Shown here piece after piece: positions 1-52,047 of a DNA stretch of 64,000 nucleotides. Where the stretch lies: NCBI GenBank assembly GCA_964589935.1, contig CAZPVD010000009.1, forward strand, positions 88,969-152,968. The letters are read 5' to 3'. The notes under the pieces were generated by a model. The model did no database searches, was not told the DNA's origin, and saw nothing but the letters and a program-made list of their open reading frames with translations. Made by a program: the position numbers and the translations under genes. The stretch comes from an uncultured Verrucomicrobiota bacterium. GTDB lineage: Bacteria; Verrucomicrobiota; Verrucomicrobiia; Limisphaerales; VHCN01. How positions within the stretch are numbered: the stretch's first letter is position 1; each line of letters begins with the position of its first letter.

Positions 1-118
1 CGCACACTCTACCCCGACATGGCCGAGGAAATCCTCAGCCTCACCGGCGAGGGACACTCCGAACCGCAGCCTTCCGTCCAAGTGGATGGCACTGCCGGGA
101 AATAATTCCAGCCGGCGC

Positions 119-1729
119 TCACTGCTGTTTCTTTTTTGCCGGCAATGGCTCGTGCGCCTGCTTGCCGGCTTTCCAGATGTCCGGCTCGACGGTGTTCTTC
201 TGCGGCACGCCGGGCGTGCTGCGTCCCTCGGCAACATATTTTTCCAGCAGCTTCGTCAAGCGCTCGACGACTTCGGGATTTTTGTCCTGCACGTTGTTTT
301 TCTCACCGATGTCGTAGCGTAAATCGTAAAGCTGCACGAGAGGCAGCCTGCTCGTGTCTGCCACACCGGGACGCGGCGCGCTCCAGCCGCCGGAGCCCGG
401 GCAGAGTTCAAATTTCCACGTGCCTTGCCGGATTGAGAACGAGCCGTTGATCGAATGATGCACGACGGCTTCGCGCAGCGGCTTGGTGTCCTTGCCGAGC
501 AGCGCGGGTAGGATGCTCACGCTGTCTTCGCCCGCGTTGTCGGGCAGTTTCACGCCGAGGATGTCCGCAACCGTCGCCATGAGGTCGGTGAGGCAGATGA
601 GCTGGTCGCTGCGCGAGTGCGGCGCAACGTGCCCCGGCCAGCGCGCGATGAACGGAATGCGATGTCCGCCGTCGAAAATGTCCGCCTTGTGCCCGCGAAA
701 GGCGTGGCTCGGATTGTGTCCCTTCGCCAGCAGCGCCGGGAAGTCGGCGTTGGGCGAGCAGCCGTTGTCGCTGGTGAAGATGAGCAGGGTGTTCTCAGAA
801 AGGCCCGAGTTGTCGAGCGCCGCCATCACTTCGCCGAGCGTCGCGTCCACTTGCATCACGAAGTCAGCGTAAGGGTTGATGCCGCTTTTGCCCTGCCATT
901 CCTTCGTCGGCAGGATCGGCGTGTGCGGCGCGTTGAGCGGCAGATAGAGGAAGAACGGTTTGCCGGCCTTCGCGTCCGCGGCGCGTTGCGAAATGTATTC
1001 GACGGCCTTGCGCGTGAGCGTCGGCAGCACATCCATCGCCTCGAACTCCGGCGCGGCCGGGCCTTCGCGTGTGAAGCCGGTCGGCTTGCCGAGCATCATG
1101 GAAAACTTTTTGTCCACGGTCGGCGCAACGGTGACGCGGTCATTTTCGATGAACGTGTAGGGCACCATGTCGAGCGACGCGCTGATGCCGAAGTAATAAT
1201 CGAAGCCGACGCTCGTCGGGCCATTGGCGATGCGCTGCATATAATCCACGTTCTTCACCTGCGCGGGCGTCTCGATGTTGAGTTCGCTCACGTCTTTGCC
1301 GGGCAACTTCACCCAGTCCATGCCGAGGTGCCATTTGCCGATGGCGCCGGTGTGATAGCCGTGTTGCTTGAGCAGCGATGCGACCGTGAGGCGGCCCGGT
1401 TCGATGAGGCGCGGGCTGAGGCCGCCGAGCACGCCGGACTGCAGGCGCGAGCGCCAGTTGTAACGGCCCGTCATGATGCCGTAGCGCGTCGGCGAACAGA
1501 CGGAGGAACTGGAATGTGCGTCGTGAAAGATCATTCCCTGCGCGGCGAGCCGGTCCATGTTCGGCGTCGCAATTTTTCCGTCGGGATTGAGCGCCTTCAC
1601 GTCGCCGTAGCCGAGGTCGTCGCAGAGGACATAAACAATGTTGGGCTTGGACGCCGCGTGGAGGGCAGGGGAGGCGAAAGCCAGCAATGACGTGGCGACC
1701 AGAAGGGATTTCAAGACGGTGTTTTTCAT
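119..1729 (-). CDS. Arylsulfatase, formylglycine type, secreted
   Basis: Signal peptide MKNTVLKSLLVATSLLAFASPALHAAS. Sulfatase signature CSPTRYGIMTGRY (C-x-P-x-R). ILCDDLGYGD N-terminal metal-binding motif. Start chosen at the internal M (MKNTVL) of the 545-aa ORF. The 5' end overlaps the HK stop by about 10 nt, which suggests co-transcription. Confidence 0.88.
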   Translation of the reverse strand: MKNTVLKSLLVATSLLAFASPALHAASKPNIVYVLCDDLGYGDVKALNPDGKIATPNMDRLAAQGMIFHDAHSSSSVCSPTRYGIMTGRYNWRSRLQSGVLGGLSPRLIEPGRLTVASLLKQHGYHTGAIGKWHLGMDWVKLPGKDVSELNIETPAQVKNVDYMQRIANGPTSVGFDYYFGISASLDMVPYTFIENDRVTVAPTVDKKFSMMLGKPTGFTREGPAAPEFEAMDVLPTLTRKAVEYISQRAADAKAGKPFFLYLPLNAPHTPILPTKEWQGKSGINPYADFVMQVDATLGEVMAALDNSGLSENTLLIFTSDNGCSPNADFPALLAKGHNPSHAFRGHKADIFDGGHRIPFIARWPGHVAPHSRSDQLICLTDLMATVADILGVKLPDNAGEDSVSILPALLGKDTKPLREAVVHHSINGSFSIRQGTWKFELCPGSGGWSAPRPGVADTSRLPLVQLYDLRYDIGEKNNVQDKNPEVVERLTKLLEKYVAEGRSTPGVPQKNTVEPDIWKAGKQAHEPLPAKKKQQ

Positions 1730-1745
1730 GGTGCGAGGCGGCAGC

Positions 1746-3332
1746 CTAGCAACCATGCAGTCGGATGTCCACTTGCAGTCCCGACGGCTGGCGGTTGTGC
1801 GCCGAGACGGTGCCCTGGCACGCCTCGACGCACGTCTTCACGATCGCGAGACCGAGGCCGATGCCGCCCGTGTCGCGGCTGCGCGACGCCTCAAGACGGT
1901 AAAACGGATCGAAGATTTGTCGCAGCGCCTTGTCCGGCACGCCGGGACCGCTGTCCGAAACACTGAAAACAATATCCTCGCCCTCGCGTCGCGCGGTGAT
2001 TGCAATCGGCCCGGCCTTCGTGCCGGCGTAGCGGACGGCATTGCGCACGAGGTTCGCAACGCCGCGCGCGAGCAGCTCCGGGTCGGCCATCGCGCGCAAC
2101 GACGGATCCACTTGCACGTGGACATTTGGCATTTCGTTCGCCTCGCGGTTCACGACGCGTCGCGCGAGCTCGGCGAGTTCGACGGGCCGCAGCCGCGTTT
2201 CCTTGGGCTTGAGGCTGGCCTTTGAAAACGCGAGCAACTCGTGCACGAGCGAGGACATCTCCTGGATTTCCTCGCGCAGTTGCTCGACATGCGCGTGCTG
2301 CGATTCGCCGGCGCGTTCCTCAAGAATGCCGAGCGCCATCTGGATGCGCGCGATGGGCGCGCACAGCTCGTGCGCCACGTCGCCGAGGAAGCGCTTCTGC
2401 CCCTTGACCTGCGCGTCGAGGCGCGCGGCCATCCGGTTGATGGACTGGCCGAGGTCACCCAACTCGTCGCGGCGTGTGTCATCCACCCGGCCGTCGAACT
2501 GCCCGTCCGCAATCTCATGCGCGGCGGATTGCGCGCGGCGGACTGTTCTCGTGATGCCGCGCACAAACGGAAGCCAGAACAGCGCGGACACGAGCGCCGC
2601 ACCACCGCCGAGAATCAGCCACGGCTTCGGATCGAACAGCAGCCCGCCGACTCGAATCGAATCCGACGCGATGAGCAGCGCGACCGGCTGGCGCGAGCCG
2701 GGACCCGCAAGCACCGGCACGCGCAGGCCGATCCAGTAGCGCACGGGGTTCGTGGAGCGCACGACAAACTTCGGATAATGCAAGCGGGGTGGAACGCCTT
2801 GATCCTTGCCCTCGCCTCCGCGCGGCGGGCCAAAATCATCCGGGCCGTCCCGGCGCGGCGGACGGTCTTCATCGAATGGCGGTCCTCCGCCACGACGAGG
2901 CGGCGGACCGTCGCGGAAATCGGGAGAGCCATCAAACTGCGGACGTTTTCGTTCCTCCGGCGGTGGGCCATTGGGTCCAGGCGGCGCGCCGGCGGGGCGC
3001 TTGTTGATTTCTTTTTCCACTTCTTCCGGCAGCGCACAGCGCGTGCCCGCGATCTGCGCGCCATCCGGGCGATACATCAGGAAATCCGCGCCATACCGCG
3101 CGCTGTAGCGCGCGAGCAACCGCTCCCAGTCCTCGGGTGGCGAGGCGCGCAGTTCGGTCACGAGGACTTCGGTGAGCGCCTCGATTCGGTCCTGCGCGGC
3201 GCCGAGCAGGATTGAACTGAAGCCCAGCCGGAACTGCTGCGCGACAAAGACCCAGCCCAGCACGACAAGAAGCAGCAGGTTCAAAAAAAACCAACCGAGT
3301 ATTTTTGCGAAGAGCGGAAAGCGTGGCTTCAT
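1746..3332 (-). CDS. Two-component sensor histidine kinase (CpxA/BaeS-like, HAMP-HisKA-HATPase)
   Basis: Two TM segments flank a periplasmic region containing a 70-aa Pro/Gly/Arg-rich stretch. H-box HELCAPIARIQ. C-terminal G-boxes (GGIGLGLAIVK). 4-nt ATGA overlap with the upstream RR gene. Confidence 0.9.
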   Translation of the reverse strand: MKPRFPLFAKILGWFFLNLLLLVVLGWVFVAQQFRLGFSSILLGAAQDRIEALTEVLVTELRASPPEDWERLLARYSARYGADFLMYRPDGAQIAGTRCALPEEVEKEINKRPAGAPPGPNGPPPEERKRPQFDGSPDFRDGPPPRRGGGPPFDEDRPPRRDGPDDFGPPRGGEGKDQGVPPRLHYPKFVVRSTNPVRYWIGLRVPVLAGPGSRQPVALLIASDSIRVGGLLFDPKPWLILGGGAALVSALFWLPFVRGITRTVRRAQSAAHEIADGQFDGRVDDTRRDELGDLGQSINRMAARLDAQVKGQKRFLGDVAHELCAPIARIQMALGILEERAGESQHAHVEQLREEIQEMSSLVHELLAFSKASLKPKETRLRPVELAELARRVVNREANEMPNVHVQVDPSLRAMADPELLARGVANLVRNAVRYAGTKAGPIAITARREGEDIVFSVSDSGPGVPDKALRQIFDPFYRLEASRSRDTGGIGLGLAIVKTCVEACQGTVSAHNRQPSGLQVDIRLHGC

Positions 3333-4219
3333 GCGTCGTCGGGATTGATGAGCATGTAGCCCGCGCTGCGGAGCGTGCGGATGAAGCGCGGGTTCTTCGG
3401 CTCGTCGCCGAGCTTCTTGCGCAACGCGGAGATGTGAACGTCAATCGAGCGGTCGAACACGTCGTAGTTCCGGTCGCGCACCTCGTCGAGCAACTGCTCG
3501 CGCGTCCGCACGCGACCGCGCGCGCGGGCGAGCGAGAGCAGCAGGTCGAACTCAACCGGCGTGAGGTTCAGCGGCTGGTCACCAAGCACGGCTGTGCGCG
3601 TGTTTGGGTTGACGCGCAGCGGGCCGACGACGGCCTCGGGTTCGCCACCGTCGCTGGGAGAATCTTTTGTCGCCGCGGTGAGCGTCGAGCGGCGCGTGAC
3701 AGCGCGCAGGCGCGCGAGCAGTTCGCGCGTGGAAAAAGTTTTCGGCAGATAATCGTCCGCGCCGATTTCGAGGCCGACGATGCGGTCGGCCTCCTCGCCG
3801 CGGCCGGTGAGCATGAGCACGGGCACGTCGGACTTGTGGCGGATTTGCTTGAGCGCCTCGAAGCCGTCGAGGCCGGGCATCATTACGTCGAGGATGATCG
3901 CGTGCCACGGCTCGGAGGTCGCGCGCGCGACGCCGTCCGCGCCGGTGTGGACCATCTCGACGGCGTAGCCGAGCGGCGTGAGATAATCTCGGATGAGCCG
4001 GCAGAGTTTTTTGTCGTCGTCCACGACGAGGATGCGCGTGGACGCCTGTGGCGTTGCAGCGGCGGACGGAGAGGAAAGTTGTCGTGGCGCGGACATTGGA
4101 TTTTCGTGGGCGATCTTCGCAGAATCGGGCGCGTTTGGGAACACCGGCTTCGCCGCCGCTTCGGGCGCGGGCGGCTTGCGGTTTCTTTTTCCAACCGTGA
4201 AGAGCGAGTGCAGGTTCAT
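3329..4219 (-). CDS. OmpR-family response regulator (REC + winged-helix)
   Basis: ILVVDDD...ILDVMMPGLDG...LTGRGEE...DDYLPKTF receiver motifs. C-terminal trans_reg_C (RFIRTLRSAGYML). Has an about 65-aa low-complexity N-terminal extension. Start set at MNLHSL; the ORF could extend to 4309. Confidence 0.85.
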   Translation of the reverse strand: MNLHSLFTVGKRNRKPPAPEAAAKPVFPNAPDSAKIAHENPMSAPRQLSSPSAAATPQASTRILVVDDDKKLCRLIRDYLTPLGYAVEMVHTGADGVARATSEPWHAIILDVMMPGLDGFEALKQIRHKSDVPVLMLTGRGEEADRIVGLEIGADDYLPKTFSTRELLARLRAVTRRSTLTAATKDSPSDGGEPEAVVGPLRVNPNTRTAVLGDQPLNLTPVEFDLLLSLARARGRVRTREQLLDEVRDRNYDVFDRSIDVHISALRKKLGDEPKNPRFIRTLRSAGYMLINPDDA

Positions 4220-4366
4220 GGGCGGAGCCGTCGGGCGAGTTTTCGCGCACTGGAATTCTTCAGCATGGCCGCAATGTAACGACTCGCGACGGGCGGCAGG
4301 CCAGAACATTTACCTCTGCTTAACAATTTCTTCCGCCCTCGAAATAATCTCTTAACAGGCGCGGCG
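4220..4366. promoter_or_regulatory. Divergent promoter region between the TCS operon and the RR-YHYH operon, with direct repeats CTTAACA (x2, about 33 nt apart)
   Basis: Intergenic sequence ...tctgCTTAACAatttcttccgccctcgaaataatctCTTAACAggcg... seen directly. It may be an OmpR-type direct-repeat binding site. No -35/-10 could be assigned with confidence. Confidence 0.3.
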
Positions 4367-4825
4367 TTGAATGTGGCCATGAAAGCTGAATTCAATTCTT
4401 CAAGCCGCCGCTGGCTGGTGGTGGATGACGAGCTCATAATCGCGGAAATGACGGCCCAGCTTCTGCGCCGTCTGAACCGTTCGGTGGAGGTGGTGCCCTT
4501 CAGCAACCCCGTGGAAGCATTGCGCGCCTTCGAGGCGGATCCCGAGTCGGTCGAGATGGTGCTTACCGACTGCAACATGCCGGAGCTGGACGGCATCAAA
4601 TTGACCCGCCTCATCCGGTCGCGCGGGCTGGGCACGAAGGTCGTTCTCATGAGCGCCGATTTTCCCGACTTGACCACGGATGAAATGCGATGGCTTGGAT
4701 TTTCTGCTGCGCTGGCGAAACCCTTTTCACTCGCCGACATTGAAACAGTTCTCCGGTCGGTGCTTTCTTTGGCGCCTCAACCCGACTTCGTGACGGACGG
4801 ACGTCTTCAACTTCAATCCGCATAA
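4367..4825 (+). CDS. Single-domain response regulator (CheY-like receiver), paralog A
   Basis: RRWLVVDDE...VLTDCNMPELDG...ALAKPF; no output domain. Ends 7 nt upstream of the YHYH gene. Paralogous to 8614..9060. Confidence 0.8.
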   Translation: MNVAMKAEFNSSSRRWLVVDDELIIAEMTAQLLRRLNRSVEVVPFSNPVEALRAFEADPESVEMVLTDCNMPELDGIKLTRLIRSRGLGTKVVLMSADFPDLTTDEMRWLGFSAALAKPFSLADIETVLRSVLSLAPQPDFVTDGRLQLQSA

Positions 4826-4832
4826 ATTTTTC

Positions 4833-6602
4833 ATGCGCCTTGCACCTTTTTTATTTCCGAATCGGCCTGTAGCGCTGGTCGTGCTGTTCGGGATGACGTT
4901 CACCGCCGCGGCGCAGACCACTGACCCGCGCGTCGCTTCGTGGCTCACCACTTACTCCGGCAAATACGCGCGCATCTACGGGACCGACGCCGACAAGACT
5001 TCCGGCGCGGCCGTCACCACATGGAGCAACGGCACGCAGACGCAGTCGTTGCCCGCCTACTGCGGCATCCAGGAGGTTTCGTATTCGACGGACTGGGTTT
5101 ATTTCCGCTCAACGGGACTCGGCAGCCACGTCATGGGGCCGTGGTATCTGAACGCCGGCCGCACGACTATTTTTCCGAACCTGCCGAAAAACACGGCGAC
5201 GTTCTACCGCATCCCGCGAAATCCAACCGTGCCTGTGACAAAGACGCTCACGGGCCTCGGTGCCATCGGCTATTTCGTGGACGGCGTGGCGATGTTCGAC
5301 AGCCGCGATGGTTATGTTTGGACAGGCACCACCGAGTCCGGCATGGGCACCGGCTACTGGAATCGCGATGCTTACGTGAACGAAAGCATCACGTTCGATC
5401 CTGGCTACGCGCATCAGGAGAACACCGGCACGCATCATTATCACGCGAACCCCATCGCGTTGCGCTACCTGCTTGGCGACAACGTCACGTTCAACTCTTC
5501 GACGAAGACTTACTCCGAGAATGCCGCCGCGCCGACGAAGCACTCGCCCGTTCTCGGCTGGGTGCGCGACGGTTATCCAGTCTATGGGCCTTACGGCTAC
5601 GCGAGCGCGATGAACTCCAACAGCGGCGTGCGGCGCATGGTCAGCGGTTACGTTGTGCGCAATGGCCAGAACGGCACGCAAAACCTCACCACCGCCGGGC
5701 GCACGACGATTCCGCAATGGGCCGTGCGCGCTTACAGCGTGTCCGCCAGCCAAAGCGGGCCGAGTGTCTCGACCACGTATCCGCTCGGTCGCTACATGGA
5801 GGACAACGATTACCTCGGCGACCTCGGCAAGACGCAGGGCACGGACTTCGACCTCGACGAATATAACGGCCGCTTTTGCGTGACGCCGGAATTTCCCGGC
5901 GGCACTTACGCTTACTTCGTCGCCATCAACGCCAGCGGCATTCCTGTGTTTCCCTACAACATCGGCCGCGCCTTTTACGGCAACCCCACCGGCGCGATGG
6001 TCGCCTCGCTCACCGAAACAGTGACGACGAATTTTGTTGGCGGTGCAAGCTCGCCCCTCACGGTCAATTCAACCGCAGTCAGCGGCGGCACGGTCACGCT
6101 TGTATGGAGTTCTGTTGAAGGCGGCAGCTACCGCGTTGAATCCGCCTCGGCGCTCACGAACTGGACAACGAAGGTTGCGAGCGTCAGCGCGGCGACCAAC
6201 GCCGTCGCAACGCAATCCGCCACGAGCACGAGCGGCACGAAAGAATTCTACCGCGTCGCCCTTACCGCCGTCGCCAGCTATGACACCGCAGGCAGCGGCG
6301 GTGGCGGTGGCGGCGGCGGCACGAGCGCCGTTGCGCCGGGAGGCAGCGCGAGCCGCGGCACATCAGTCACGGTGACCATCACGCTTCCGACTTCGCCGCC
6401 GCAGCCACCGGCGAATCTCGTGCCGACCAGCGTCACGCTTGCGGGCACGATCACCGGCACCGCCATTTCGCGACCGAGCGCCGGCACGGTGCAGGCCACC
6501 TTTGTGATCCCTTCGAATGCGTCCACTGGCGCGCAAAACGTCGTGGTCGTGTTCAGCCCCGCGCCGACCTACACGCTGACGGGAGGCTTCACGATCAATT
6601 GA
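4833..6602 (+). CDS. Secreted YHYH-motif protein (PF14240-like) with C-terminal FN3/Ig-like domains and a poly-Gly linker
   Basis: Signal peptide. Motif NTGTHHYHANP. FN3-like segment (LTVNSTAVSGGTVTLVWSSVEGGSYRVESASALTNW). GGGGGGGG run. C-terminal beta-rich Ig-like domain. Family assignment is from motif memory, not a search. Confidence 0.7.
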   Translation: MRLAPFLFPNRPVALVVLFGMTFTAAAQTTDPRVASWLTTYSGKYARIYGTDADKTSGAAVTTWSNGTQTQSLPAYCGIQEVSYSTDWVYFRSTGLGSHVMGPWYLNAGRTTIFPNLPKNTATFYRIPRNPTVPVTKTLTGLGAIGYFVDGVAMFDSRDGYVWTGTTESGMGTGYWNRDAYVNESITFDPGYAHQENTGTHHYHANPIALRYLLGDNVTFNSSTKTYSENAAAPTKHSPVLGWVRDGYPVYGPYGYASAMNSNSGVRRMVSGYVVRNGQNGTQNLTTAGRTTIPQWAVRAYSVSASQSGPSVSTTYPLGRYMEDNDYLGDLGKTQGTDFDLDEYNGRFCVTPEFPGGTYAYFVAINASGIPVFPYNIGRAFYGNPTGAMVASLTETVTTNFVGGASSPLTVNSTAVSGGTVTLVWSSVEGGSYRVESASALTNWTTKVASVSAATNAVATQSATSTSGTKEFYRVALTAVASYDTAGSGGGGGGGGTSAVAPGGSASRGTSVTVTITLPTSPPQPPANLVPTSVTLAGTITGTAISRPSAGTVQATFVIPSNASTGAQNVVVVFSPAPTYTLTGGFTIN

Positions 6603-6625
6603 TCCGCCGCCGAAGCCGCGCCCCA

Positions 6626-8536
6626 ATGAAACCAATTTCAAATCACAAGCAACGGTTTGCGCGGGCGCGCGCCGCCGGAGCGCTGTGTGCGGGGCTTTTC
6701 TTCGTCGCGGTCAATACGAGTGTTGCAGTTACGCTGAATGTCCGCGTCGCTGCCCGCTTCAACGACGCGCCACTCGTGCTTGATTCACTCGTTAACACGA
6801 CCGCGGCGGGACAGGCCGTTTCCGTGACGCGGTTGGATTTTCTGTTGTCAAACTTTGCCCTGCATGAAGCCGGCGGCGGTTGGACGGAGCGCACCAACAC
6901 GTTTGCCTATGTCAGCGTGCGCGAGGGGCGGACGACGTTTTCCGTGGAGAATGTTCCAGCGGGAAGTTACGACCGCATCCGTTTTCACGTCGGGCTAGAA
7001 CCCGCGATCAATCACAGCGACCCCGCGAAGTTTCCCGCCGCGCATCCGCTCAACGCCGTCTTGAACGGCCTGCATTGGAATTGGCAGGGTGGCTACGTGT
7101 TTCTCGCGATGGAGGGCCGCTGGCGCCTGCCGGACGGCTCGCTGGGCGGCTACTCTCACCACATCGCGAATGACGCGCGACTGATGACTGTGTCGCTGCC
7201 CGTCGCTCTCTCGCTGCCCCGCGATGCCGCGCTCGATCTGGCCTTGCACGTGGATCGCATCTGGAGCGGCAAGTCCGCGATCAAACTCAGCCCTGAAGCC
7301 GTCTCGACGCATTCACGCGAAGGCGACGTGCTCGCGGCGCAACTGGCTGAGAACATTCAGGCCGCATTCGCCGTCGGCGTTGCCGAGCCGCGCGTCGCGG
7401 GAAAGTCAGACGAGCCATTTGAGTTTCGTCCGCCGCCGCCCCGGTTCGGAAGACCTCCGCCACTTCCGCCACCGTTCGCGCGGGAACGCGAACCGAGCGT
7501 TGCGTTGCCCAAAGGCACGACGCCTTATCGCCTGACGTTCGGGCGGCAGTTTCCAATTCCCGATTTGCCGCGCGACAATCCGCTGACGGAGCAAGGCGTC
7601 GCGCTCGGGCGACAGTTGTTCAACGATCCGATCCTTTCGATCAACGGCAAGCAATCATGCTCGTCGTGCCATCAAGCGGACGCGGCTTTCACCGACAAGG
7701 GTCGCGCCGCGAGCCTCGGTGCCGAGGGACAGGCCGGAACGCGCAACGCGATGCCGCTCTTCAACCTCGCGTGGAACCGCTCGTTTTTCTGGGACGGTCG
7801 CGCACGCACGCTGCGCGAGCAGGTGCTCATGCCGATCCAAAATCCCATCGAGATGCACGAATCGCTGACGAACGTGGTAAGAAAGCTTGAAAACTCAGCG
7901 TCAAAAAACTCCACAAATTATCCCGCGCTCTTTGCGCGCGCGTTCGGCTCGCAAGAGATCGCGGCCGAGCGCATCGCAATGGCGCTGGAGCAATTTCTCG
8001 TCACGCTCGTCAGCGACGATTCCAGGTTCGACCGCGTGATGCAGGGACGCGAGCAGCCGAGCGAGGATGAGCGTCGCGGCTTCGAGCTGTTCAACACCGA
8101 ATTCGATCCGCGGCGAGGCTTGTTTGGCGCGGATTGTTTTCACTGTCACGGCGGACCGTTCTTCACCAACCACCGTTTCGCCAACAACGGCCTCGATGCG
8201 GAGCCGCGCGACACGGGCCGGCTTGAAGTGACCAAGAATGAGCATGACCGTGGGCTGTTCGCCGTGCCGTCATTGCGCAACGTGGCGTTGACCGCGCCCT
8301 ATATGCACGACGGACGCTTCAAGACGCTCGAAGAAGTCGTCGAGCACTACAGCACCGGTGTGCGGCGCAGCGCGACGCTCGACCCGAACCTCGCGAAGCA
8401 TCCCGTGCAGGGTCTCCAGCTTTCCGTGGAGGACAAGCGCGCTCTCATGGCGTTCTTGCGCATGCTCACGGACGAATCGCTGTCGCAACGCAACATGGCG
8501 AAGTCCGATCCTGATTTCCGCTCCAGTGGGCGGTAG
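6626..8536 (+). CDS. Fusion protein: N-terminal domain of unknown function (about 300 aa) + C-terminal di-heme cytochrome c peroxidase (CCP/MauG family)
   Basis: Two CxxCH heme motifs (CSSCHQAD; CFHCHGGPFF). CCP-like FNDPILS, PSLRNVALTAPYMHDG. Pro-rich linker FEFRPPPPRFGRPPPLPPPF. Signal peptide. The 4-nt overlap (ATGA) is with the long ORF-track start at 6599; the annotated start 6626 lies 24 nt downstream of the upstream stop. Confidence 0.8.
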   Translation: MKPISNHKQRFARARAAGALCAGLFFVAVNTSVAVTLNVRVAARFNDAPLVLDSLVNTTAAGQAVSVTRLDFLLSNFALHEAGGGWTERTNTFAYVSVREGRTTFSVENVPAGSYDRIRFHVGLEPAINHSDPAKFPAAHPLNAVLNGLHWNWQGGYVFLAMEGRWRLPDGSLGGYSHHIANDARLMTVSLPVALSLPRDAALDLALHVDRIWSGKSAIKLSPEAVSTHSREGDVLAAQLAENIQAAFAVGVAEPRVAGKSDEPFEFRPPPPRFGRPPPLPPPFAREREPSVALPKGTTPYRLTFGRQFPIPDLPRDNPLTEQGVALGRQLFNDPILSINGKQSCSSCHQADAAFTDKGRAASLGAEGQAGTRNAMPLFNLAWNRSFFWDGRARTLREQVLMPIQNPIEMHESLTNVVRKLENSASKNSTNYPALFARAFGSQEIAAERIAMALEQFLVTLVSDDSRFDRVMQGREQPSEDERRGFELFNTEFDPRRGLFGADCFHCHGGPFFTNHRFANNGLDAEPRDTGRLEVTKNEHDRGLFAVPSLRNVALTAPYMHDGRFKTLEEVVEHYSTGVRRSATLDPNLAKHPVQGLQLSVEDKRALMAFLRMLTDESLSQRNMAKSDPDFRSSGR

Positions 8537-8539
8537 GCG

Positions 8540-8576
8540 GGCTGGTGTGAAAGTTGTGTGTCCACCGGCCCGCCTG
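8540..8576 (+). terminator. Hairpin immediately after the CCP-fusion stop (GCGGGCTGGTG...CCACCGGCCCGC)
   Basis: Imperfect inverted repeat seen in the sequence, followed by an A/T-poor tail. Could be a partial terminator or an mRNA processing site. Confidence 0.3.
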
Positions 8577-8613
8577 AACCTTTGATGACAATGCGCAATC
8601 AACAAAACAAATC

Positions 8614-9060
8614 ATGAGTGCACCGTTTTACACCGAACCCACACGGCGCTGGATGGTCGTGGACGACGAAGAGACTTACCTGCAAATCATGGTGCTGGTT
8701 CTGGAATGTCTTGGCGGCGCCGAAGTCCGCGGGTTCACCTCGCCTCGTGCGGCACTGGAGGCGCTCGCCGAGGCGCCGGGTGAATTTGAACTCATCGTGA
8801 CCGACCGTCGAATGCCGGAGATTGACGGCCTCGAATTCGCGCAGCTCATCCGCGCGTGGGTGCCGGATGCAAAGGTCATTCTCGCCACAGCGGATTGTTC
8901 CGGTCTGTCAGACGAACTAGCGCGGCGGCTCGGCCTTTCTGCGGTCCTGGCAAAACCCTTCAAGCCGGGCGCTCTCGAAACGGCTGTCCGCGCCGCACTC
9001 GCGGAGCGGGCCGGAGACGGTTACGCTGCCCGGAACAGCACTCTGGCTTGCGCGGCATAA
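8614..9060 (+). CDS. Single-domain response regulator (CheY-like receiver), paralog B
   Basis: RRWMVVDDE...IVTDRRMPEIDG...VLAKPF. Alignable over its full length with 4367..4825. Confidence 0.8.
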   Translation: MSAPFYTEPTRRWMVVDDEETYLQIMVLVLECLGGAEVRGFTSPRAALEALAEAPGEFELIVTDRRMPEIDGLEFAQLIRAWVPDAKVILATADCSGLSDELARRLGLSAVLAKPFKPGALETAVRAALAERAGDGYAARNSTLACAA

Positions 9061-9095
9061 CCGGGACAAATGGGCTAACAGCGACCGAAATCACA

Positions 9096-11102
9096 ATGAA
9101 CCTCATCAGCAAATCGTGCCCCTCTCTGTCCGCAACCGCACAACGGAACGGCGGCCTCGCGCTCCTCATCGCAACAGCCATCACGGGACTAACTCATTTT
9201 GCGGAGGCACACGTCATCGGCGACGCCGCACATGATGGCCGCGAAGCATCTTATGACTTCAACGTGCGCCCGCCGACGCGGGTTCTTCTGCGCGCTCCCG
9301 CCGATGGTTCGGTGATTCTTGCCCGAAGCAACGATTCCGATGATGACGGGCGTTCCGCAGGCGCGTGTGGCGCTCCTGCGATCAAGGCCGATGTGATGGC
9401 AAAGGCGTTTGCCGCATTCGCGCCGCGCGTGAAGACGCACTACGACGAAAGGTATCTCTTTGTCGAATCCGACGGCTTGCCCACGCACAACATGATGGTG
9501 GGCATCCGCAACTGGCAGCAGCAGGTGCCGCTGCCGCAGGCGTATCGCGGTGGGAACGCCTTTCGCCTTCCGCTTGAGCCGGTGCTCGCGGCGAACCCCG
9601 TGTTGGCGCGGAACAACCTTTTCCGCGGCGCGATTGCGCTGGCCGTGAACGGTGTGCCGATTTTCAACGCGCTCAATAATCGTGGCGAGGATTCGTTCAA
9701 GATCGGCGAACTCGACCAGTGGGGCGGCCACTGCGGGCGCGCGGACGATTATCATTATCACGCTGCGCCGCTCCACTTGCAGGAAGCGGCCGGCGCAGGG
9801 CGGCCCATCGCGTTTGCGCTCGACGGTTTTCCGATTTACGGGCTGACCGAGCCGGACGGCGCGCCGGTCGCGAAACTCGACGAACTCAACGGCCACTTCG
9901 ATAAAATCGGAAACTATCACTACCACGGCACGAAGGAATATCCCTATATCAACGGCGGCCTGCGCGGCGAAGTCACCGTGCGCGACGGTCAGGTGGACCC
10001 GCAGCCGCATGCACAGCCGGTTCGCGCGGCGGGCCAACCGTTGCGCGGCGCGGTCATCACAGATTTTTCCTCACCGTCACCGGACCGGCATCGCCTCATC
10101 TACGCGCTGAACGGGCGGACGCACACGATTGATTACGCTGTGGCGGACGGAGCAGTTTCGTTCGCATTCGACGGCGGCGCGGGCCAGACGTTTGCGCAAA
10201 ACACAGAGCAGCGAAGCACGGAGCGGCCGCTCGACCCGTTGTATGTCCGGCCGCAATTTGCCGCGGCAACGGCGGGCACGAATCAGGTTTCCATCACCGT
10301 CGAGGGGGAGTTTCGCGTGATTCGAGCGAACGGTTTGCCCGATCACGTGACGGGCCAGTTCCCCGGACGCAACAACCCGAACCGCATTTCGGCGCAGAGC
10401 TACGACTTCCGTGTGCCACTCAAGCCGCAAGTCGCTGCGAAAACGACCGCGCTCGGAATGTATCCGTTCGGCGTGGCGGTCAACGGCGTGGTGTTCGACC
10501 CCGGCGCGGCGGAGTGGTGGCGCGGCGACCGCGACTGGCAATACGAGCCGCTCTTTCTCGAAGGCAGACTCGGCGCGGACCAGAGCAACGCGCACGTCCA
10601 GCCGACCGGTGCGTATCACTATCATGCCATCCCGACGGCGTTGCTTGACAGGCTCACCGGCGGCAGGCCCATGCCCGCGCTCCTCGGCTGGGCGGCGGAC
10701 GGCTTTCCGATTTACTGCCCGTGGGATTACAGCGACGCGAAGAGCACGAACAGCGTGCTGAAGAAAATGAAATCATCCTACCGCGTGAAACAGGGCGTGC
10801 GATCCGGCGGCCCCGGCGGAAAATACGACGGCACGTTCCTCGCCGATTTTCAATACGTCGCCGGCTCGGGCGATCTCGACGAATGCAACGGCCGTTTCGG
10901 CATCACACGCGAATTTCCCGAAGGCACGTATCATTACATTCTGACCGAGGACTGGCCGTTCATCCCGCGGTTGTTTCGGGGCACGCCGAGTTCGAGCTTC
11001 TTCCGCCACGGTCCGCCGGGCGGACAGCGTTTCGGCGGGCCGGGTGGACCCAAAGGCCCGCCGTCGAAGGGGTTTCCACCGCCGCGTCCGTTCAATCCGT
11101 GA
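9096..11102 (+). CDS. Secreted protein with three to four YHYH repeats (PF14240-like) and a Pro/Gly-rich C-terminal tail
   Basis: DYHYHAAP, NYHYHGTKEYPY, AYHYHAIP, GTYHYILTED. Signal/anchor MNLISKSCPSLSATAQRNGGLALLIATAITGL. Tail GPPGGQRFGGPGGPKGPPSKGFPPPRPFNP. The start was moved from the 8856 ORF start to an internal ATG because the upstream part overlaps the RR gene. Confidence 0.7.
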   Translation: MNLISKSCPSLSATAQRNGGLALLIATAITGLTHFAEAHVIGDAAHDGREASYDFNVRPPTRVLLRAPADGSVILARSNDSDDDGRSAGACGAPAIKADVMAKAFAAFAPRVKTHYDERYLFVESDGLPTHNMMVGIRNWQQQVPLPQAYRGGNAFRLPLEPVLAANPVLARNNLFRGAIALAVNGVPIFNALNNRGEDSFKIGELDQWGGHCGRADDYHYHAAPLHLQEAAGAGRPIAFALDGFPIYGLTEPDGAPVAKLDELNGHFDKIGNYHYHGTKEYPYINGGLRGEVTVRDGQVDPQPHAQPVRAAGQPLRGAVITDFSSPSPDRHRLIYALNGRTHTIDYAVADGAVSFAFDGGAGQTFAQNTEQRSTERPLDPLYVRPQFAAATAGTNQVSITVEGEFRVIRANGLPDHVTGQFPGRNNPNRISAQSYDFRVPLKPQVAAKTTALGMYPFGVAVNGVVFDPGAAEWWRGDRDWQYEPLFLEGRLGADQSNAHVQPTGAYHYHAIPTALLDRLTGGRPMPALLGWAADGFPIYCPWDYSDAKSTNSVLKKMKSSYRVKQGVRSGGPGGKYDGTFLADFQYVAGSGDLDECNGRFGITREFPEGTYHYILTEDWPFIPRLFRGTPSSSFFRHGPPGGQRFGGPGGPKGPPSKGFPPPRPFNP

Positions 11103-11232
11103 GGTCGCGGCTCGTCTGACTTCGGCGAAACAAATCGAACCTTGCCCGTTCACCAGGAGCGGGAGTAAATGTGCCGCGACGCGCGTAGAGCCGCGCACTG
11201 TGGAAAGGCGTTCACGCGGGATATGATGGGTT

Positions 11233-12864
11233 ATGGACGACGTGACTCTTCCGAGAGATCCGAATCAGCCGCAGGCCGCGCCTGCGGTTCCCGTTGCGGG
11301 CGCGACTCCCGATAGTGCTGGCGGCGAGGGGAGGTCCGGCACGTTTGGGCGCGACCTTTCCGGCGCGACGCTTGGAGATTACCGGCTCGTGCGGAAAATT
11401 GCCGAGGGTGGGATGGGCGAAGTTTATGAGGCCATTCAACTCAACCTCGACCGGCGGGTCGCGTTGAAGCTCGTCACCGACCGCTTTGCGTCGCAGTCGC
11501 AGTTTCTCGTCCGCTTCGAGCGCGAGGCCAAGGCCGCGGCGGCGCTGAACCATCCGAACATCGTCCAGGTTTATGACTTCGGGAAGGCGGAGGGACTGTT
11601 CTACCTCGTGATGGAATTCGTGGACGGCGTGGATTTGGCCGAATACGTGAAGGGCCGCGGAAAACTTTCCGTCACCGAGGCGCTGGGGTTTATCGAGCAG
11701 GCGGCCCGTGGCCTGAACGCAGCCGCCGCGCAGGCGATCATCCATCGCGACGTCAAGCCCGCGAATCTCCTGCTCACCAACGACGGCATCGTCAAGGTGT
11801 CCGACCTTGGTCTTGCGAAAAAGCTCACCGACGAGTCCGAAGTGACGATGACGAGTGCCTGTCTGGGTTCGCCGCACTTCCTTGCGCCCGAGCAGGCCGC
11901 CGACGCGCGCCGCGTGGATCATCGCGCCGACATTTATTCGCTGGGCATCACGCTGTTGTTTCTGCTCACGGGCAAACATCCGTTCGACGGCGGTTCGGCC
12001 CTCACTGTGCTGCTCGCGCACGCGCAGAAGCCGCTGCCGACGGGCGCGGAACTCGGCGTGGCTTTGCCGGACGCGGTCGAATCGCTGATCCGCCGAATGT
12101 CGGCGAAAAATCCAGAAGATCGCTATCAGGATTACGCCTCGCTGTTCGCCGACGTGGCGCGCGTGAAAGCGGGCTTTGAGCCTGCCGAGAAGTTCGCGGC
12201 GACACCCGCTGCAAATCAGCGCCGCCACAAGTTGAAAGTGGCGCTTGCTTCGGTCGCAGGTGTCGCCGTCGCGGGAGCGTTGATTTCGATGTTCTGGCCG
12301 AAACCGCCGCTGCCGGCAAACCAGCCACAGCAATCCGCGCCGGTTGATCGTCGATTTGATGGAGGGCAGCCATTCGGGAGGCGTCCGGGCCCGGATCAAT
12401 TCGATGACCCACCCGGTTTTCAGGGCGGCAAGGAAGGGCCACCGGGACGCAGGCCGATGCGCCTGCCGTTTCCGCCGCCGCCGCAGAAGGAATTCAACCC
12501 GCTTCCCGACGGGCCGATTCCGGCCATGATTGCGATGGCCGACCGATACGCCGCGACGAACGCGCAGGAGTGCGTCAAAATCATTGACCGCTACTTTCAA
12601 ATCCAGCACAAGGCCGCGGGCACACAGTGGGAGGAGGAGATTGACAGGAAGCTGTCGCTCGCGATCGAAGCGCACAAAAAAGCGACGCAAGAGATCATCA
12701 ACAACCTGCAAGCCCGCATGACGAGATTCCTGCGCGAAAACAAGCCGCAAGATGCCTTCGATGTCTGGCGGGAATTCCCGACACGTCTGCGGACACCTGA
12801 AGCCGACCAGCAGATCGGGCAAATCCTCCAGCGCGAGCTGCCTCCAGAGTTCCAGCCGAATTAG
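11233..12864 (+). CDS. Eukaryotic-type Ser/Thr protein kinase with a single TM and a periplasmic Pro-rich/helical tail
   Basis: GxGxxG-like loop (EGGMGEVYEA), VALK, HRDVKPANLL, DLG, APE motifs. TM VALASVAGVAVAGALISMFW. Then RRFDGGQPFGRRPGPDQFDDPPGF... Confidence 0.88.
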   Translation: MDDVTLPRDPNQPQAAPAVPVAGATPDSAGGEGRSGTFGRDLSGATLGDYRLVRKIAEGGMGEVYEAIQLNLDRRVALKLVTDRFASQSQFLVRFEREAKAAAALNHPNIVQVYDFGKAEGLFYLVMEFVDGVDLAEYVKGRGKLSVTEALGFIEQAARGLNAAAAQAIIHRDVKPANLLLTNDGIVKVSDLGLAKKLTDESEVTMTSACLGSPHFLAPEQAADARRVDHRADIYSLGITLLFLLTGKHPFDGGSALTVLLAHAQKPLPTGAELGVALPDAVESLIRRMSAKNPEDRYQDYASLFADVARVKAGFEPAEKFAATPAANQRRHKLKVALASVAGVAVAGALISMFWPKPPLPANQPQQSAPVDRRFDGGQPFGRRPGPDQFDDPPGFQGGKEGPPGRRPMRLPFPPPPQKEFNPLPDGPIPAMIAMADRYAATNAQECVKIIDRYFQIQHKAAGTQWEEEIDRKLSLAIEAHKKATQEIINNLQARMTRFLRENKPQDAFDVWREFPTRLRTPEADQQIGQILQRELPPEFQPN

Positions 12865-12896
12865 CGGATTGACCCACGGAGCGCCTGCCTGCTGGC

Positions 12897-13676
12897 TTAC
12901 TTGAGTGACTTCGGCGGTTTTATGGATGGAGGCGGCTCCTTTGCTTTTGCCTGCGCGGCCGTCCATCGCGATTCCCAATCTGCCCACGATGAAGCCCACG
13001 CTTCACCAGCGAAATTTTTCCTCGCCGTCGGAAGGAGTTCTTCGAACGCCTTAAGTTCGTGCTGAGAAGTTTTCTTGTCGCCCCACTTCAGCGCGGATTC
13101 GAGGAGGTTCAGCCGGTTCTCAGGAAAATCCGGCGCGACTTCGACAGCCTTCGTCAAATACATGCGGGCCTTGCTTCTGCTGCCGACGCTCGCGGGCCAG
13201 CCGGGCGCGTCGCGATAGAGCAGGCCGAGGCAGCGATCCGGGCCGGCGTGATCAAAGGCGGCGTCGAGTTCGCGCGTGAGTTTGAACTGCCGCTCCATGT
13301 CATCCACGAGCGGCAGAGCGCCAAGCATCTTGGTGCGCGCGAGCTGGCCAAGATTCATTGCTAGATAATAGTGTCCGGCAGCGAGTTTCGGCTCACGGGT
13401 AAGGAGCGGACGGCACGCGCCGATGCCCTCGACCGCGAGCGTGGCGCGCTGCGTGTCGTTGGCCGCGAATTCCGCCCGGTCGAAGCACGCTCGTCCAAAC
13501 TGCCACGCAGCCTCGGCGTTGTTCGTGTCCGCGAGAAAGCGCACGCGCGCCTGCTGGTAGCTTTTTTCGGCAAAGGCGATGAATTGAGCCGGGCCGGCGG
13601 GCGTCTGGGTTTGCGCCTGAATTGCAGCAACACCCGCCGCGAGCATGGCCGCGGCCAGCACGCAAAACCGCCTCAT
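12897..13676 (-). CDS. Secreted TPR-like repeat protein
   Basis: Signal peptide MRRFCVLAAAMLAAGVAAIQA. Helical repeat composition (AEAAWQFGRACFDRAEF; HYYLAMNLGQLA). No enzymatic motifs. Confidence 0.55.
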   Translation of the reverse strand: MRRFCVLAAAMLAAGVAAIQAQTQTPAGPAQFIAFAEKSYQQARVRFLADTNNAEAAWQFGRACFDRAEFAANDTQRATLAVEGIGACRPLLTREPKLAAGHYYLAMNLGQLARTKMLGALPLVDDMERQFKLTRELDAAFDHAGPDRCLGLLYRDAPGWPASVGSRSKARMYLTKAVEVAPDFPENRLNLLESALKWGDKKTSQHELKAFEELLPTARKNFAGEAWASSWADWESRWTAAQAKAKEPPPSIKPPKSLK

Positions 13677-13945: not shown

Positions 13946-15373
13946 ATGCGCTTCCCCCTTGCGCTGACGGTCAAAATCGCCCGTCACATCATCAAACACA
14001 AACTTCGCAAGACGCCGAAGTTTGCCATGGTTTTGCAGCTCGAACCGTTGCACACGTGCAACCTAACCTGCACCGGCTGCGGACGCATCCGCGAATACTC
14101 CACTTCGCTCAAGGACATGGTGCCGTTGGAGCAGTGCCTCGCCGCCGCGCAGGATTGCGATGCGCCGATGGTCTCGATTTGCGGCGGTGAGCCGCTGATT
14201 TATCCGAAGATTGAGGAGCTGGTCGCCGGGCTGCGCGAGCAGGGCCGCATTATTTACATCTGCACGAACGCAATGTTCATGCGGAAGAAGATGCGCGACT
14301 ACATGGCCGCCGTCTTCACGCCGGAGATGGAAGCGAAGCTCCAGCAGCTCGTCGCCGAGAAGCTCGTCACCGAGAAAGAAGCCGAGGCCATCCGCAACGC
14401 CGATGCCGCCGCGAAGGCGAAAGTCGTCATCAAGCCCAGCAAGTGGATGTATTGGAATGTCCATGTGGACGGCTTGGAATACACGCACGACCTCATCGTC
14501 GAGCGCGAGGGCGTCTTCAAGGAATGCGTCGCCGCCATCAAGATGGCGAAGATTCTCGGTTACCAGACTGCGACGAACACGACCGTTTACAAGGAGACCG
14601 ACGTGCAGGAGATCGAGGACATGTTCAAGTTCCTCTCCTCGCTCGACGTGGACGGCCACACGATTTCCCCCGGCTACGACTACGACGCCGCGAAGAAGGA
14701 CATGGTCAAGCGCCTCGGTCGCGACCCGAAGGAATTCTTCCTCACGCGCGACATGACGCGCGCGAAGTTTAAGGACATCGAGAAGTGGGGCAAGGCATTC
14801 ACCATCTTCGGCACGCCGGTTTATCAGGAGTTCCTCGCCGGCAAACGCGAGCTGACCTGCACCGCGTGGGCCATCCCGACTTACAACGTGAAGGGCTGGA
14901 AAGCGCCGTGCTATCTGATGACCGACGGCCATTACCCGACCTACGCCGAGATGCTCGGCACCGTGAAGTGGGAGAAATACGGCGTGGTGGACGGCATCGC
15001 GCGCGACTCGCGCTGCGAGCATTGCATGGTCCATTGCGGCTACGATCCCAGCGGGGCGTTGAGCACCAAGCCGCGCGACACGTGGATCAACATGAAATAC
15101 AACTTTGGCGCGAAGCCGAAGCCGTATGCCGCCAGCGCCGACTTGGAGAAACGCGCGTTCAACGGCGTGACCATCGGCAAAGGCCACCTCGCCGAGGCCA
15201 AGGCTGCCATCAACCCCGCCGCCAGCGCGCGCGGTGCCTTTTCCCGCAAGGAAGAAGAACACGACCACGCTCCCGCCACAGGCGGCTCGTGCGGCTCTGG
15301 TGACACTTCCCAACGCGACGATTTGATCGCGAAAATTCGTGACGCGAAGAAGATTGAAGTGAAGGCCGAGTAG
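13946..15373 (+). CDS. hpnH: Adenosylhopane synthase, radical SAM (HpnH), with an internal insertion and C-terminal extension
   Basis: CNLTCTGCGRI radical-SAM motif. N-terminus (KFAMVLQLEPLHTCNL...PMVSICGGEPL...YICTNA) closely matches remembered HpnH sequences. At 475 aa it is about 90 aa longer than typical HpnH. Confidence 0.75.
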   Translation: MRFPLALTVKIARHIIKHKLRKTPKFAMVLQLEPLHTCNLTCTGCGRIREYSTSLKDMVPLEQCLAAAQDCDAPMVSICGGEPLIYPKIEELVAGLREQGRIIYICTNAMFMRKKMRDYMAAVFTPEMEAKLQQLVAEKLVTEKEAEAIRNADAAAKAKVVIKPSKWMYWNVHVDGLEYTHDLIVEREGVFKECVAAIKMAKILGYQTATNTTVYKETDVQEIEDMFKFLSSLDVDGHTISPGYDYDAAKKDMVKRLGRDPKEFFLTRDMTRAKFKDIEKWGKAFTIFGTPVYQEFLAGKRELTCTAWAIPTYNVKGWKAPCYLMTDGHYPTYAEMLGTVKWEKYGVVDGIARDSRCEHCMVHCGYDPSGALSTKPRDTWINMKYNFGAKPKPYAASADLEKRAFNGVTIGKGHLAEAKAAINPAASARGAFSRKEEEHDHAPATGGSCGSGDTSQRDDLIAKIRDAKKIEVKAE

Positions 15374-15407
15374 TCAACCTTCACGACGCGGTTTCCCCAA
15401 ACGAGCA

Positions 15408-23164: not shown

Positions 23165-23333
23165 TCGCTTTCTACCTTTCGATCGGACAATCATGTCTGG
23201 CGCATTGAACTTTTACAAGCGCTCGGCAAGGAAGACTTGATTGCCACTTCCCTGTTGTGCCCGGACCTTCTGTCGTTAACATTCCCTTAGCTCGACTGAA
23301 CAGGCTTTGGCCCCATTGCGTCCATTCCACCCG

Positions 23334-26303: not shown

Positions 26304-26356
26304 AGCCTTTTGACGCTACAGTGCGTCCAACACAGCGGCGCTGATTTTGTTGAGCC

Positions 26357-43799: not shown

Positions 43800-43873
43800 C
43801 CCTGAGAGGGCTGCGGCGGACGATGGCAATTTCCACTTGGAATGACAAGCTGGAAGCGGACGGGGACTTTACC

Positions 43874-52001: not shown

Positions 52002-52047
52002 TTTTCTGTAGCGGCGGCTTGTGAGCGTCGCATTTTTTTGAACTCAG

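Follow-up and report, generated by a model that had tools for sequence, protein, structure and literature searches.

A conserved pair of YHYH-protein and fused MbnP::MbnH genes in Verrucomicrobiota, here next to a two-component system

What is the conserved unit of a bacterial locus in which genes for a two-component system, small response regulators, exported YHYH-motif proteins and a di-haem peroxidase lie side by side, and what could such a unit do? The locus in question occupies positions 119-11102 of a 64,000-nucleotide (nt) stretch of DNA (hereafter the window) from an uncultured Verrucomicrobiota bacterium (assembly GCA_964589935.1, contig CAZPVD010000009.1, positions 88,969 to 152,968). 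An earlier note on this DNA had described it as a duplicated module, in which a stand-alone response regulator (RR) gene precedes a YHYH gene, arranged around a peroxidase fused to an unknown domain; it had considered the combination not to be a described system and had placed it under phosphorelay control. We scanned related genome and metagenome loci with the proteins of the window (these relatives are coded L0xx or L1xx), and we found that the locus is the known MbnP/MbnH system in a new form: the two proteins are fused, paired with a YHYH protein and controlled by a two-component system, and are accompanied here by two paralogous receivers and a two-domain YHYH fusion. Its biochemistry we infer from the characterised pair. 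Taken as a whole, we read the locus as a two-component-regulated operon for exported metalloproteins, built on a pair of YHYH-1 and MbnP::MbnH that is conserved across Verrucomicrobiota; we hold this reading tentatively, as one whose chances come close to even and fall slightly short of it.

The first step is the identity of the peroxidase. The plus-strand gene at 6626-8536 encodes a protein of 636 amino acids (aa) with a signal peptide. Its N-terminal half (domain at about nt 6731-7267) is the part that had been left as an unknown domain, and it matches MbnP (PF20243, 1.7e-28, 100.2 bits against a cut-off of 27). A Pro-rich linker follows, and then a C-terminal di-haem domain (about nt 7592-8536; PF03150 CCP_MauG, 3.5e-55, 187 bits) having two haem c motifs, CSSCH at aa 345 and CFHCH at aa 504. 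The best NCBIfam match of the fusion was TIGR04039, MbnH (3e-70), and the best match of the peroxidase half in the PDB was MbnH as well (6E1C, 2.7e-48); the MauG structures matched at about 1e-28, and TIGR03791 at 1e-52, under its cut-off. The MbnP half carries the motif W151-N-W153 (WxW), and both Trp residues are shared by all 17 stand-alone MbnPs that we aligned with it. A profile made from this half and the 17 proteins retrieves the crystal structure 7L6G with the WNW motifs aligned, and the His of the NHS motif is conserved too. Among the matches listed, 120/120 fused homologues keep both domains, two CxxCH motifs and WxW, and several of them bear the NCBI name 'MbnP family protein'. The fusion was present in 49 recovered genome loci, nearly all of them Verrucomicrobiota metagenome-assembled genomes, while the Bacteroidota loci had MbnP and MbnH as separate genes and no YHYH. 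These matches identify the formerly unknown domain as MbnP, and the whole protein as the predicted Verrucomicrobia version of the known MbnP/MbnH copper-binding pair.

To our knowledge, the biochemistry of MbnP/MbnH has been characterised in one methanotroph only. There, MbnH converts a Trp of the WxW motif of MbnP into kynurenine, a change required for copper binding (PMC11951088; background in PMC3621798). The fusion resembles the pair of Methylosinus trichosporium OB3b (7L6G, 6E1C; TIGR04052/TIGR04039, the 'metallo-mystery pair') in joining a periplasmic di-haem MauG-like enzyme to a partner with the WxW motif. It differs in being one polypeptide, in having Leu-His instead of Met-Ala before WxW, in not reaching the equivalog cut-offs, and in its surroundings. 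Neither MbnA, MbnB or MbnC nor the TonB-dependent transporter MbnT was found among the Pfam matches of the scanned proteins, in positions 1-26 kb of the window or in the annotated related loci; the constant neighbour is instead a YHYH protein.

This neighbour, YHYH-1 (4833-6602, plus strand; PF14240, 139 bits), is an exported protein encoded immediately before the fusion. Among the 40 Verrucomicrobiota fused loci with enough upstream sequence, an orthologue of YHYH-1 (E 1e-116 to 1e-251) stands directly upstream of MbnP::MbnH in 25, and sampling in the reverse direction showed MbnP::MbnH to be the next gene after four of the five YHYH-1 orthologues that lie on long contigs. The link between YHYH and a haem peroxidase that the earlier note had noticed is thus real and strongly conserved. 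In the closest relative, L085, whose YHYH-1 is 82% identical, a sulfatase, a histidine kinase (HK) and an RR lie on one side, and YHYH-1, MbnP::MbnH, a sulfatase, a YHYH gene (337 aa) and a Ser/Thr kinase follow on the other, with no small receivers. From the counts in both directions and from the gene order of L085, we concluded that the conserved unit is YHYH-1 followed by MbnP::MbnH, often together with a two-component system (a divergent OmpR/HK pair occurs in 12 of the 33 loci having at least 5 kb upstream), and not an RR followed by a YHYH gene. Five loci also have, downstream of the fusion, a gene of about 330 aa resembling the N-terminal part of the second YHYH protein of the window. 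Synteny further out in the relatives (BamA, DnaB, TopA and ThiE) was set aside as housekeeping, which reflects the relatedness of the genomes and not function.

As for the novelty of the combination, its core is the described MbnP/MbnH pair, and the link with YHYH was absent from the literature accessible to us, where we found nothing connecting YHYH (PF14240) with MbnP or MbnH, no sulfatase fusions and no conserved operator; the main papers on the pair (JBC 2019, PNAS 2021, Biochemistry 2023) lay outside this search and may mention the fusion or YHYH.

If the unit is YHYH-1 with MbnP::MbnH, what are the small receivers? RR-A (4379-4825) and RR-B (8614-9060), both on the plus strand, consist of a receiver domain only (148 aa each; PF00072). 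They are paralogous, as had been claimed (37-39% identity over ~126 residues, E 3e-25), are each other's closest relatives in the compared set, and share 28% identity with the receiver of the OmpR-type RR of the locus. In the alignment both keep the phospho-acceptor residues, namely DD (in VVDD), TD, S/T and K (in KPF). Together with four receivers encoded downstream of MbnP::MbnH in relatives they make up one small family (29-51% identity) that shares the motifs W-[ML]-[IVL]-V-D-D and T-D-x-x-M-P.

The earlier note had built its model upon these paralogues: each receiver would be paired with the adjacent YHYH protein under a phosphorelay, and the pair of genes would be a duplicated signalling module. 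RR-A and RR-B do lie just 7 and 35 nt ahead of a YHYH gene, the metagenomic locus L088 has an RR-B-like gene before a YHYH-2-type gene, and in L011 both are adjacent in the reverse order. However, RR-YHYH adjacency across relatives, named beforehand as the refuting test, was not borne out, since in none of the 33 related loci does a small RR precede YHYH-1, and L088 is the only further locus in which an RR precedes a YHYH gene. A small receiver does occur downstream of MbnP::MbnH in 4 of 44 relatives, taking the place of RR-B in L008, L017 and L021 and coming after YHYH-2 in L011, so that in three of the four cases it follows the fusion and not a YHYH gene. Searching metagenomes with the RR profile gave 80 loci with mostly generic receivers, of which only L087 and L088 look like family members and a single one has a YHYH gene. 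Moreover, the receivers are cytoplasmic and the YHYH proteins exported, the two YHYH genes belong to different subfamilies (see below), and the locus encodes no hybrid kinase or HPt protein. We therefore regard the duplicated module as very improbable. The two small RRs are local add-ons, not part of the conserved module. Of all the loci compared, the window alone has RR-A inserted behind the conserved promoter and ahead of YHYH-1; RR-A is therefore a lineage-specific insertion and the first gene of the regulated operon.

Stand-alone receivers can act as phosphate sinks, e.g. CheY1 of Sinorhizobium. RR-A and RR-B resemble such receivers in sequence, as extra CheY-like domains with intact acceptor sites, and differ in being encoded inside the target operon and not with chemotaxis genes. 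Because they would be made from the regulated transcript, their simplest and most likely role is that of additional phosphoryl acceptors, as a sink or in feedback on the output of the kinase; this is the weakest step of our proposal.

We then ask what the YHYH proteins could be. In YHYH-1 a YHYH core (about aa 30-395) is followed, at the C-terminus, by two beta-sandwich domains of the Ig-like (FN3/IPT) type. The protein represents a full-length family of ~580 aa whose members share 56-82% identity; among YHYH orthologues identity stays at 55-82% over wide taxonomic distances. The second protein, YHYH-2 (9096-11102, plus strand; 668 aa, exported, two PF14240 domains, 276 bits), is only 28% identical to YHYH-1, and we assign the two to different subfamilies instead of taking them as duplicates of one module. 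YHYH-2 is itself a fusion of two distinct YHYH subfamilies, with an N domain (about aa 100-375), a C domain (about aa 396-638) and a Pro/Gly-rich tail. For the N half, the matching proteins (55-67% identity) are widespread, have ~370 aa and are frequently joined to a PEBP or EF-hand domain. P0005/6/8 share 71-73% identity with the C half, and YHYH proteins of this type are encoded beside Ser/Thr kinase, FHA and metallo-beta-lactamase-fold genes. The two-domain form is rare, and we observed it also in the close relative L174.

The H-Y-H motif reads HHYH in YHYH-1 and occurs twice as YHYH in YHYH-2. Across three YHYH subfamilies, H99 (near-invariant), D189, H194, H202-Y-H204, D246, D342/N345, Y359 and Y361 are invariant or nearly so. 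This His/Asp/Tyr set looks like the signature of a metal centre, in agreement with a prediction from the phage literature. The family has also been reported from diatoms and from jumbo phages (PMC7824862), and the only functional statement that we found, in line with the earlier remark that YHYH has no assigned function, is the prediction of a Zn-dependent hydrolase for phage tail-associated versions (PMC7824862). These proteins have the same domain with the invariant His triad and Asp; the YHYH-1 subfamily is set apart from them by its 580-aa architecture (core and two Ig-like domains) and by its MbnP::MbnH neighbour. A single-sequence search returned about 1,800 YHYH clusters at 50% identity.

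How would the pair be controlled? Divergent from the plus-strand genes are three minus-strand genes: an OmpR-family RR with receiver and winged helix (PF00072 and PF00486; 3329-4096, open reading frame (ORF) open to 4309), a sensor HK (1746-3332; HAMP, HisKA and HATPase_c by Pfam), and, last, a Cys-type sulfatase having a signal peptide and the CSPTR formylglycine motif (119-1756; PF00884, 170 bits). They overlap by 4 and 11 nt, the latter between the stop of the HK and the sulfatase. The true start of the RR is probably Met72 at 4096, which gives 255 aa; the orthologues have 216-291 aa. The kinase has two transmembrane segments and a periplasmic region with a Pro/Gly/Arg/Asp-rich insert, and its orthologues in L016, L054, L085 and L088 match at 1e-128 to 1e-151. 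The order sulfatase-HK-RR is repeated in L016 (sulfatase 2e-262) and in L085. A flanking two-component system, and with it exported and probably metal-related proteins, had been proposed before, and rightly. The supposed phosphorelay was not recovered: the kinase is orthodox and has no receiver, and Pfam detects no HPt domain in the eight proteins of the locus, so that control is predicted to be of the two-component type. For the two-component systems adjoining YHYH genes in Planctomycetes, with an identity of 30-39% only, orthology cannot be claimed.

Between the divergent genes, at 4309-4357 on the plus strand, lies a conserved promoter/operator with direct repeats and a sigma-70-like site: TTTACC (4309-4314), TTAACA as -35 (4320-4325), a spacer of 17 nt, AATAAT as -10 (4343-4348) and CTTAACA (4351-4357). 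From the start of the first repeat to that of the second there are 11 bp, and the third repeat, TTAACA at 4352, is just past the -10. The pattern TTTACN{6,7}TTWACA occurs once in the 64 kb (0.00 expected), and positions 1-13000 contain no sigma-70-like site other than 4320-4348, which lies 31 nt ahead of the start of RR-A. Our terminator and promoter scans gave background-level counts overall; 4320-4348 is meaningful because it is conserved. Ahead of YHYH-1, the tripartite motif recurs in the corresponding position in L085, L016, L054, L170 and L171, and twice in L088, where one copy precedes an EF-hand protein; in L171 it is present without an adjacent two-component system. Direct repeats at 11-bp spacing that overlap the -35 are the usual operator layout of the OmpR/PhoB family. 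Since the repeats fit this layout, we infer that the adjacent OmpR-type regulator drives the promoter. The likeness to OmpR/PhoB systems of the pho-box type concerns genes and motif only, i.e. a divergent RR-HK operon and half-sites 11 bp apart at the -35.

Two further elements touch on this control. In a second subclade (intergenic regions of L008, L011, L017, L088:4850-4990 and L172) another upstream motif, ACCTTAAG..GATGAAGA and CTTAAGGTT..GTAAGGT, replaces the TTTAC/TTAACA repeats; such a different conserved motif implies a second, putative pairing of two-component system and operator for the same gene set. Inside the plus-strand operon, a GC-rich hairpin follows the stop of MbnP::MbnH (8532-8580, plus strand; -32.8 kcal/mol, z = -3.4, 0/200 shuffles as stable, no U-tract). 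It could work as an attenuator or stabilise the transcript, and may divide the part for the core pair from RR-B and YHYH-2.

From RR-A through YHYH-1, MbnP::MbnH and RR-B to YHYH-2, the plus-strand gaps measure 7, 23, 77 and 35 nt. The earlier note had these values and the gene order correctly, apart from the second gap, given as 24 nt. All eight ORFs of the locus were found at the positions it had listed (ORF map, Pfam/NCBIfam), and the profiles PF14240, PF03150 and PF00072 matched YHYH-1, YHYH-2, the fusion, RR-A and RR-B as it had expected. The starts of RR-A (ATG at 4379), RR-B and YHYH-2 match the gene calls in a public protein collection, and a signal-peptide-like N-terminus is present on every product of the plus operon except the two receivers.

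With which chemistry might the exported pair be concerned? In three loci YHYH-1 is fused to a Cys-type sulfatase (L033:6462-9842, L052:6921-9992 and L038:4453-7494, the last on the minus strand). The fusions come in both domain orders, each adjoins MbnP::MbnH and begins with a signal peptide, and the YHYH and C-S-P-T-R (CxPxR) motifs are intact in all three. Separate sulfatases share an operon with the pair in L005, L018 and L085. In six loci without YHYH-1 (L031, L032, L035, L037, L045 and L046), the gene after MbnP::MbnH is a large ORF, and the six ORFs form a single homologous cluster. In L037 (4610-9649), L045 (11663-16705) and L046 (5025-9671), Pfam recognises in this ORF a glyoxal/galactose-oxidase-like Kelch region (copper radical oxidase family), together with PKD/PA14 domains and, at the C-terminus, a di-haem domain like those of CCP_MauG/RoxA; L032 (11602-20541) belongs with them by cluster homology. 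Taken together, the YHYH-1::sulfatase fusions and the glyoxal-oxidase-like partner in the place of YHYH-1 suggest an accessory role for MbnP::MbnH, in the service of an exported metalloenzyme encoded beside it.

From these elements the following course of events can be proposed. The kinase would sense a periplasmic cue and phosphorylate the OmpR-type regulator. The regulator would bind the conserved TTTAC-N6-TTAACA...TTAACA repeats that overlap the -35, and would drive RR-A, YHYH-1 and MbnP::MbnH and, by read-through past the hairpin, RR-B and YHYH-2. After Sec export, the MbnH domain would oxidise a WxW Trp of the tethered MbnP to kynurenine and so create a copper site, as in the Methylosinus pair. 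MbnP::MbnH would then assist the neighbouring exported enzyme as a metal (copper) module; this enzyme is YHYH-1 here and the glyoxal-oxidase-like protein elsewhere; synteny and gene fusions speak for the partnership, and the chemistry is conjectural. YHYH-1, with its invariant His/Asp/Tyr putative metal centre, might work together with the Cys-type sulfatases. RR-A and RR-B, lineage-specific paralogues made from the same transcript or transcripts, would most likely be the phosphate sinks or modulators of kinase feedback discussed above.

A bolder form of this proposal, which we consider doubtful, makes YHYH a new family of exported, perhaps copper-dependent metalloenzymes and MbnP::MbnH its dedicated periplasmic device for metal insertion or cofactor maturation; the fusions would then mean that YHYH-1 acts jointly with sulfatases on sulfated substrates, or that it is a sulfatase maturase. 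The maturase case is the more radical one, as YHYH-1 would be an alternative route to formylglycine, and it would parallel the substrate-maturase fusion of MbnP::MbnH itself.

The copper site of MbnP could also be taken to mean acquisition or homeostasis of copper with no catalysis involved. YHYH-1 and YHYH-2 would scavenge or buffer copper and exchange it with kynurenine-MbnP in a MopE/CorA- or CopC-like manner, and the two-component system would be a CopRS/CusRS-like sensor. MbnP is a copper protein, the invariant His residues of YHYH are spaced as H-x7-H-x-H, the heavy-metal sensor kinase family is among the NCBIfam matches of the kinase (under cut-off), and MbnP/MbnH pairs occur in copper operons of other bacteria. 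The arrangement is also similar to that of MopE/CorA and CorB of methanotrophs, where the gene for a secreted or surface copper protein with a kynurenine ligand lies next to that for a MauG-like di-haem enzyme (PMC3621798, PMC11951088), although MopE and CorA fold differently from MbnP, we detected no sequence similarity to them, and the locus is not a known methanotroph locus. On the other hand, the very high conservation of YHYH over 300-580 residues, with ~20 invariant positions, is more typical of an enzyme. A metal buffer would hardly be expected in sulfatase fusions or in phage tail proteins, the annotated loci show no copper exporter or importer near the pair, and the sensor domain of the kinase is not rich in His, Met or Cys. 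Copper acquisition or homeostasis without catalysis seems to us unlikely.

Glyoxal and galactose oxidases carry a protein-derived Tyr-Cys cofactor, and the glyoxal/galactose-oxidase family protein that is the partner in other lineages has its own di-haem domain; YHYH-1 might likewise be a substrate of the MauG-like MbnH. It would gain an oxidised or cross-linked Tyr/Trp/His cofactor, as MauG provides for methylamine dehydrogenase, and MbnP would be a tethered docking or copper module. The tight, conserved gene pair with short gaps or overlaps agrees with this, as do the placement of MbnH in the MauG branch, which modifies partner proteins, and the invariant Tyr residues flanking the His motif (Y203, Y359 and Y361). 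The biogenesis of tryptophan tryptophylquinone by MauG on pre-methylamine dehydrogenase is indeed a case of a di-haem enzyme of the same superfamily oxidising Trp residues of its partner; here, however, there are no methylamine dehydrogenase subunits, and the substrate domain MbnP is covalently attached. The fused MbnP already provides the known substrate, and YHYH subfamilies with the same invariant residues mostly occur without an MbnH neighbour, which indicates that the core motif is independent of MbnH. We give this alternative a low probability.

The whole set might instead be a regulon for envelope stress, peroxide or Ca2+, in which the kinase would respond to the state of the envelope or to divalent cations, with MbnH mainly a periplasmic peroxidase, and YHYH, EF-hand proteins and sulfatases as co-regulated envelope or glycan proteins among which no metal is handed over. 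The best NCBIfam matches of the kinase are CpxA/BaeS-like envelope sensors, all under cut-off; many YHYH proteins are fused to EF-hands, in L088 an EF-hand protein is preceded by the same promoter motif, and other loci have EF-hand proteins downstream. Such a regulon would leave unexplained both the covalent MbnP-MbnH fusion with WxW in all 120 listed verrucomicrobial copies and the strict adjacency of YHYH-1 and MbnP::MbnH, and we think its chances slim.

Several observations nevertheless weigh against our own proposal of a regulated metalloprotein operon with a copper module and its client. The NCBIfam equivalog cut-offs are not reached (237 against 363 bits for MbnH, TIGR04039; 41 against 140 bits for MbnP, TIGR04052). 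The Met two residues before the WxW of 7L6G is a Leu here and is followed by a conserved His, and this Leu-His precedes WxW in 107/120 of the listed fused proteins, at the place of Met-Ala in the solved MbnP; for this reason the metal site of the fused family may differ from the one solved. The scores under the cut-offs and the Leu-His replacement together set the fused family apart as a divergent subfamily that is not orthologous to the proteins of the methanotroph. None of CopA, CusCBA/F, TonB-dependent MbnT, Sco and PCuAC is next to the pair in the annotated loci. The YHYH core found no counterpart among solved structures, which favours no particular chemistry, and the fusions of YHYH to EF-hands or PEBP elsewhere point to Ca2+ or anions as much as to copper. 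Secreted EF-hand proteins recur in the same regulon, and in Planctomycetes YHYH genes adjoin OmpR/HK pairs and sulfatases without MbnP/MbnH, two facts that would also suit the stress or Ca2+ regulon. The genome is rich in sulfatases, with three in 64 kb, so that adjacency of a sulfatase is weak evidence and only the fusions count. Finally, the alpha-1 residues of RR-A and RR-B differ from those of the OmpR-type RR, which leaves a shared kinase for the three unproven.

Some further features of these loci may be recorded. Secreted EF-hand proteins are encoded downstream of the pair at L088:9622-10263, at L015:11757-12467 and in family c3, and at L085:15869-16588. In L169:8001-11329 (Telmatocola sphagniphila, CP074694) and L167:4984-12603, genes of the YHYH-2 N type lie by OmpR/HK pairs with no MbnP/MbnH neighbour; in L167 the order is YHYH::PEBP, sulfatase and metallophosphoesterase, with overlapping stops and starts. 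Downstream of YHYH-2 the window encodes a membrane Ser/Thr protein kinase (11233-12864, plus strand; PF00069), and a Ser/Thr kinase gene follows a YHYH-2-type gene also in L085, L016, L048, L054 and L174. A PQQ_2 beta-propeller follows this kinase in L016, L048, L054 and L085, and a multihaem cytochrome and a porin-like gene are next in L016, L048 and L054. In L002 and L004, C-type YHYH genes have Pkinase, FHA and Lactamase_B_2 genes as neighbours. Pro/Gly/Arg/Asp-rich stretches that resemble one another (RDGPPP, FGRPPP, GPPGG) occur in four proteins of the window: the periplasmic loop of the HK (2778-3035, minus strand), and on the plus strand the MbnP-MbnH linker (7400-7510), the tail of YHYH-2 (10970-11102) and the extracytoplasmic part of the Ser/Thr kinase (12350-12510). 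Pro-rich sensor loops were seen also in the kinases adjoining the YHYH genes of L167 and L169.

Past the locus, two adjacent radical-SAM genes (13946-16883, plus strand) encode two proteins, the one containing DUF3463 and the other a B12-binding domain; synteny with L174 extends into the start of the first gene, inside which the L174 contig ends. At 42429-43829 on the minus strand a response-regulator receiver is fused to a metallo-beta-lactamase-fold (Lactamase_B_2) domain. The regions 23307-27787 and 50529-54542, both on the plus strand, encode a PSCyt1/PSCyt2/PSD1 protein, its DUF1501 partner and two further sulfatases, a content typical of the Planctomycetes-Verrucomicrobia-Chlamydiae group.

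What, then, does the locus offer? The conserved and co-regulated pair of YHYH-1 and MbnP::MbnH gives an experimental handle both on the physiological role of MbnP/MbnH and on the function of YHYH, through the three sulfatase fusions, the cuproenzyme-like replacement in other lineages, and a defined promoter motif with its putative cognate two-component system. Verrucomicrobiota are major degraders of sulfated glycans. If YHYH-1 is indeed a client enzyme of MbnP::MbnH, the pair would represent a new periplasmic route of metallation or maturation in this phylum.

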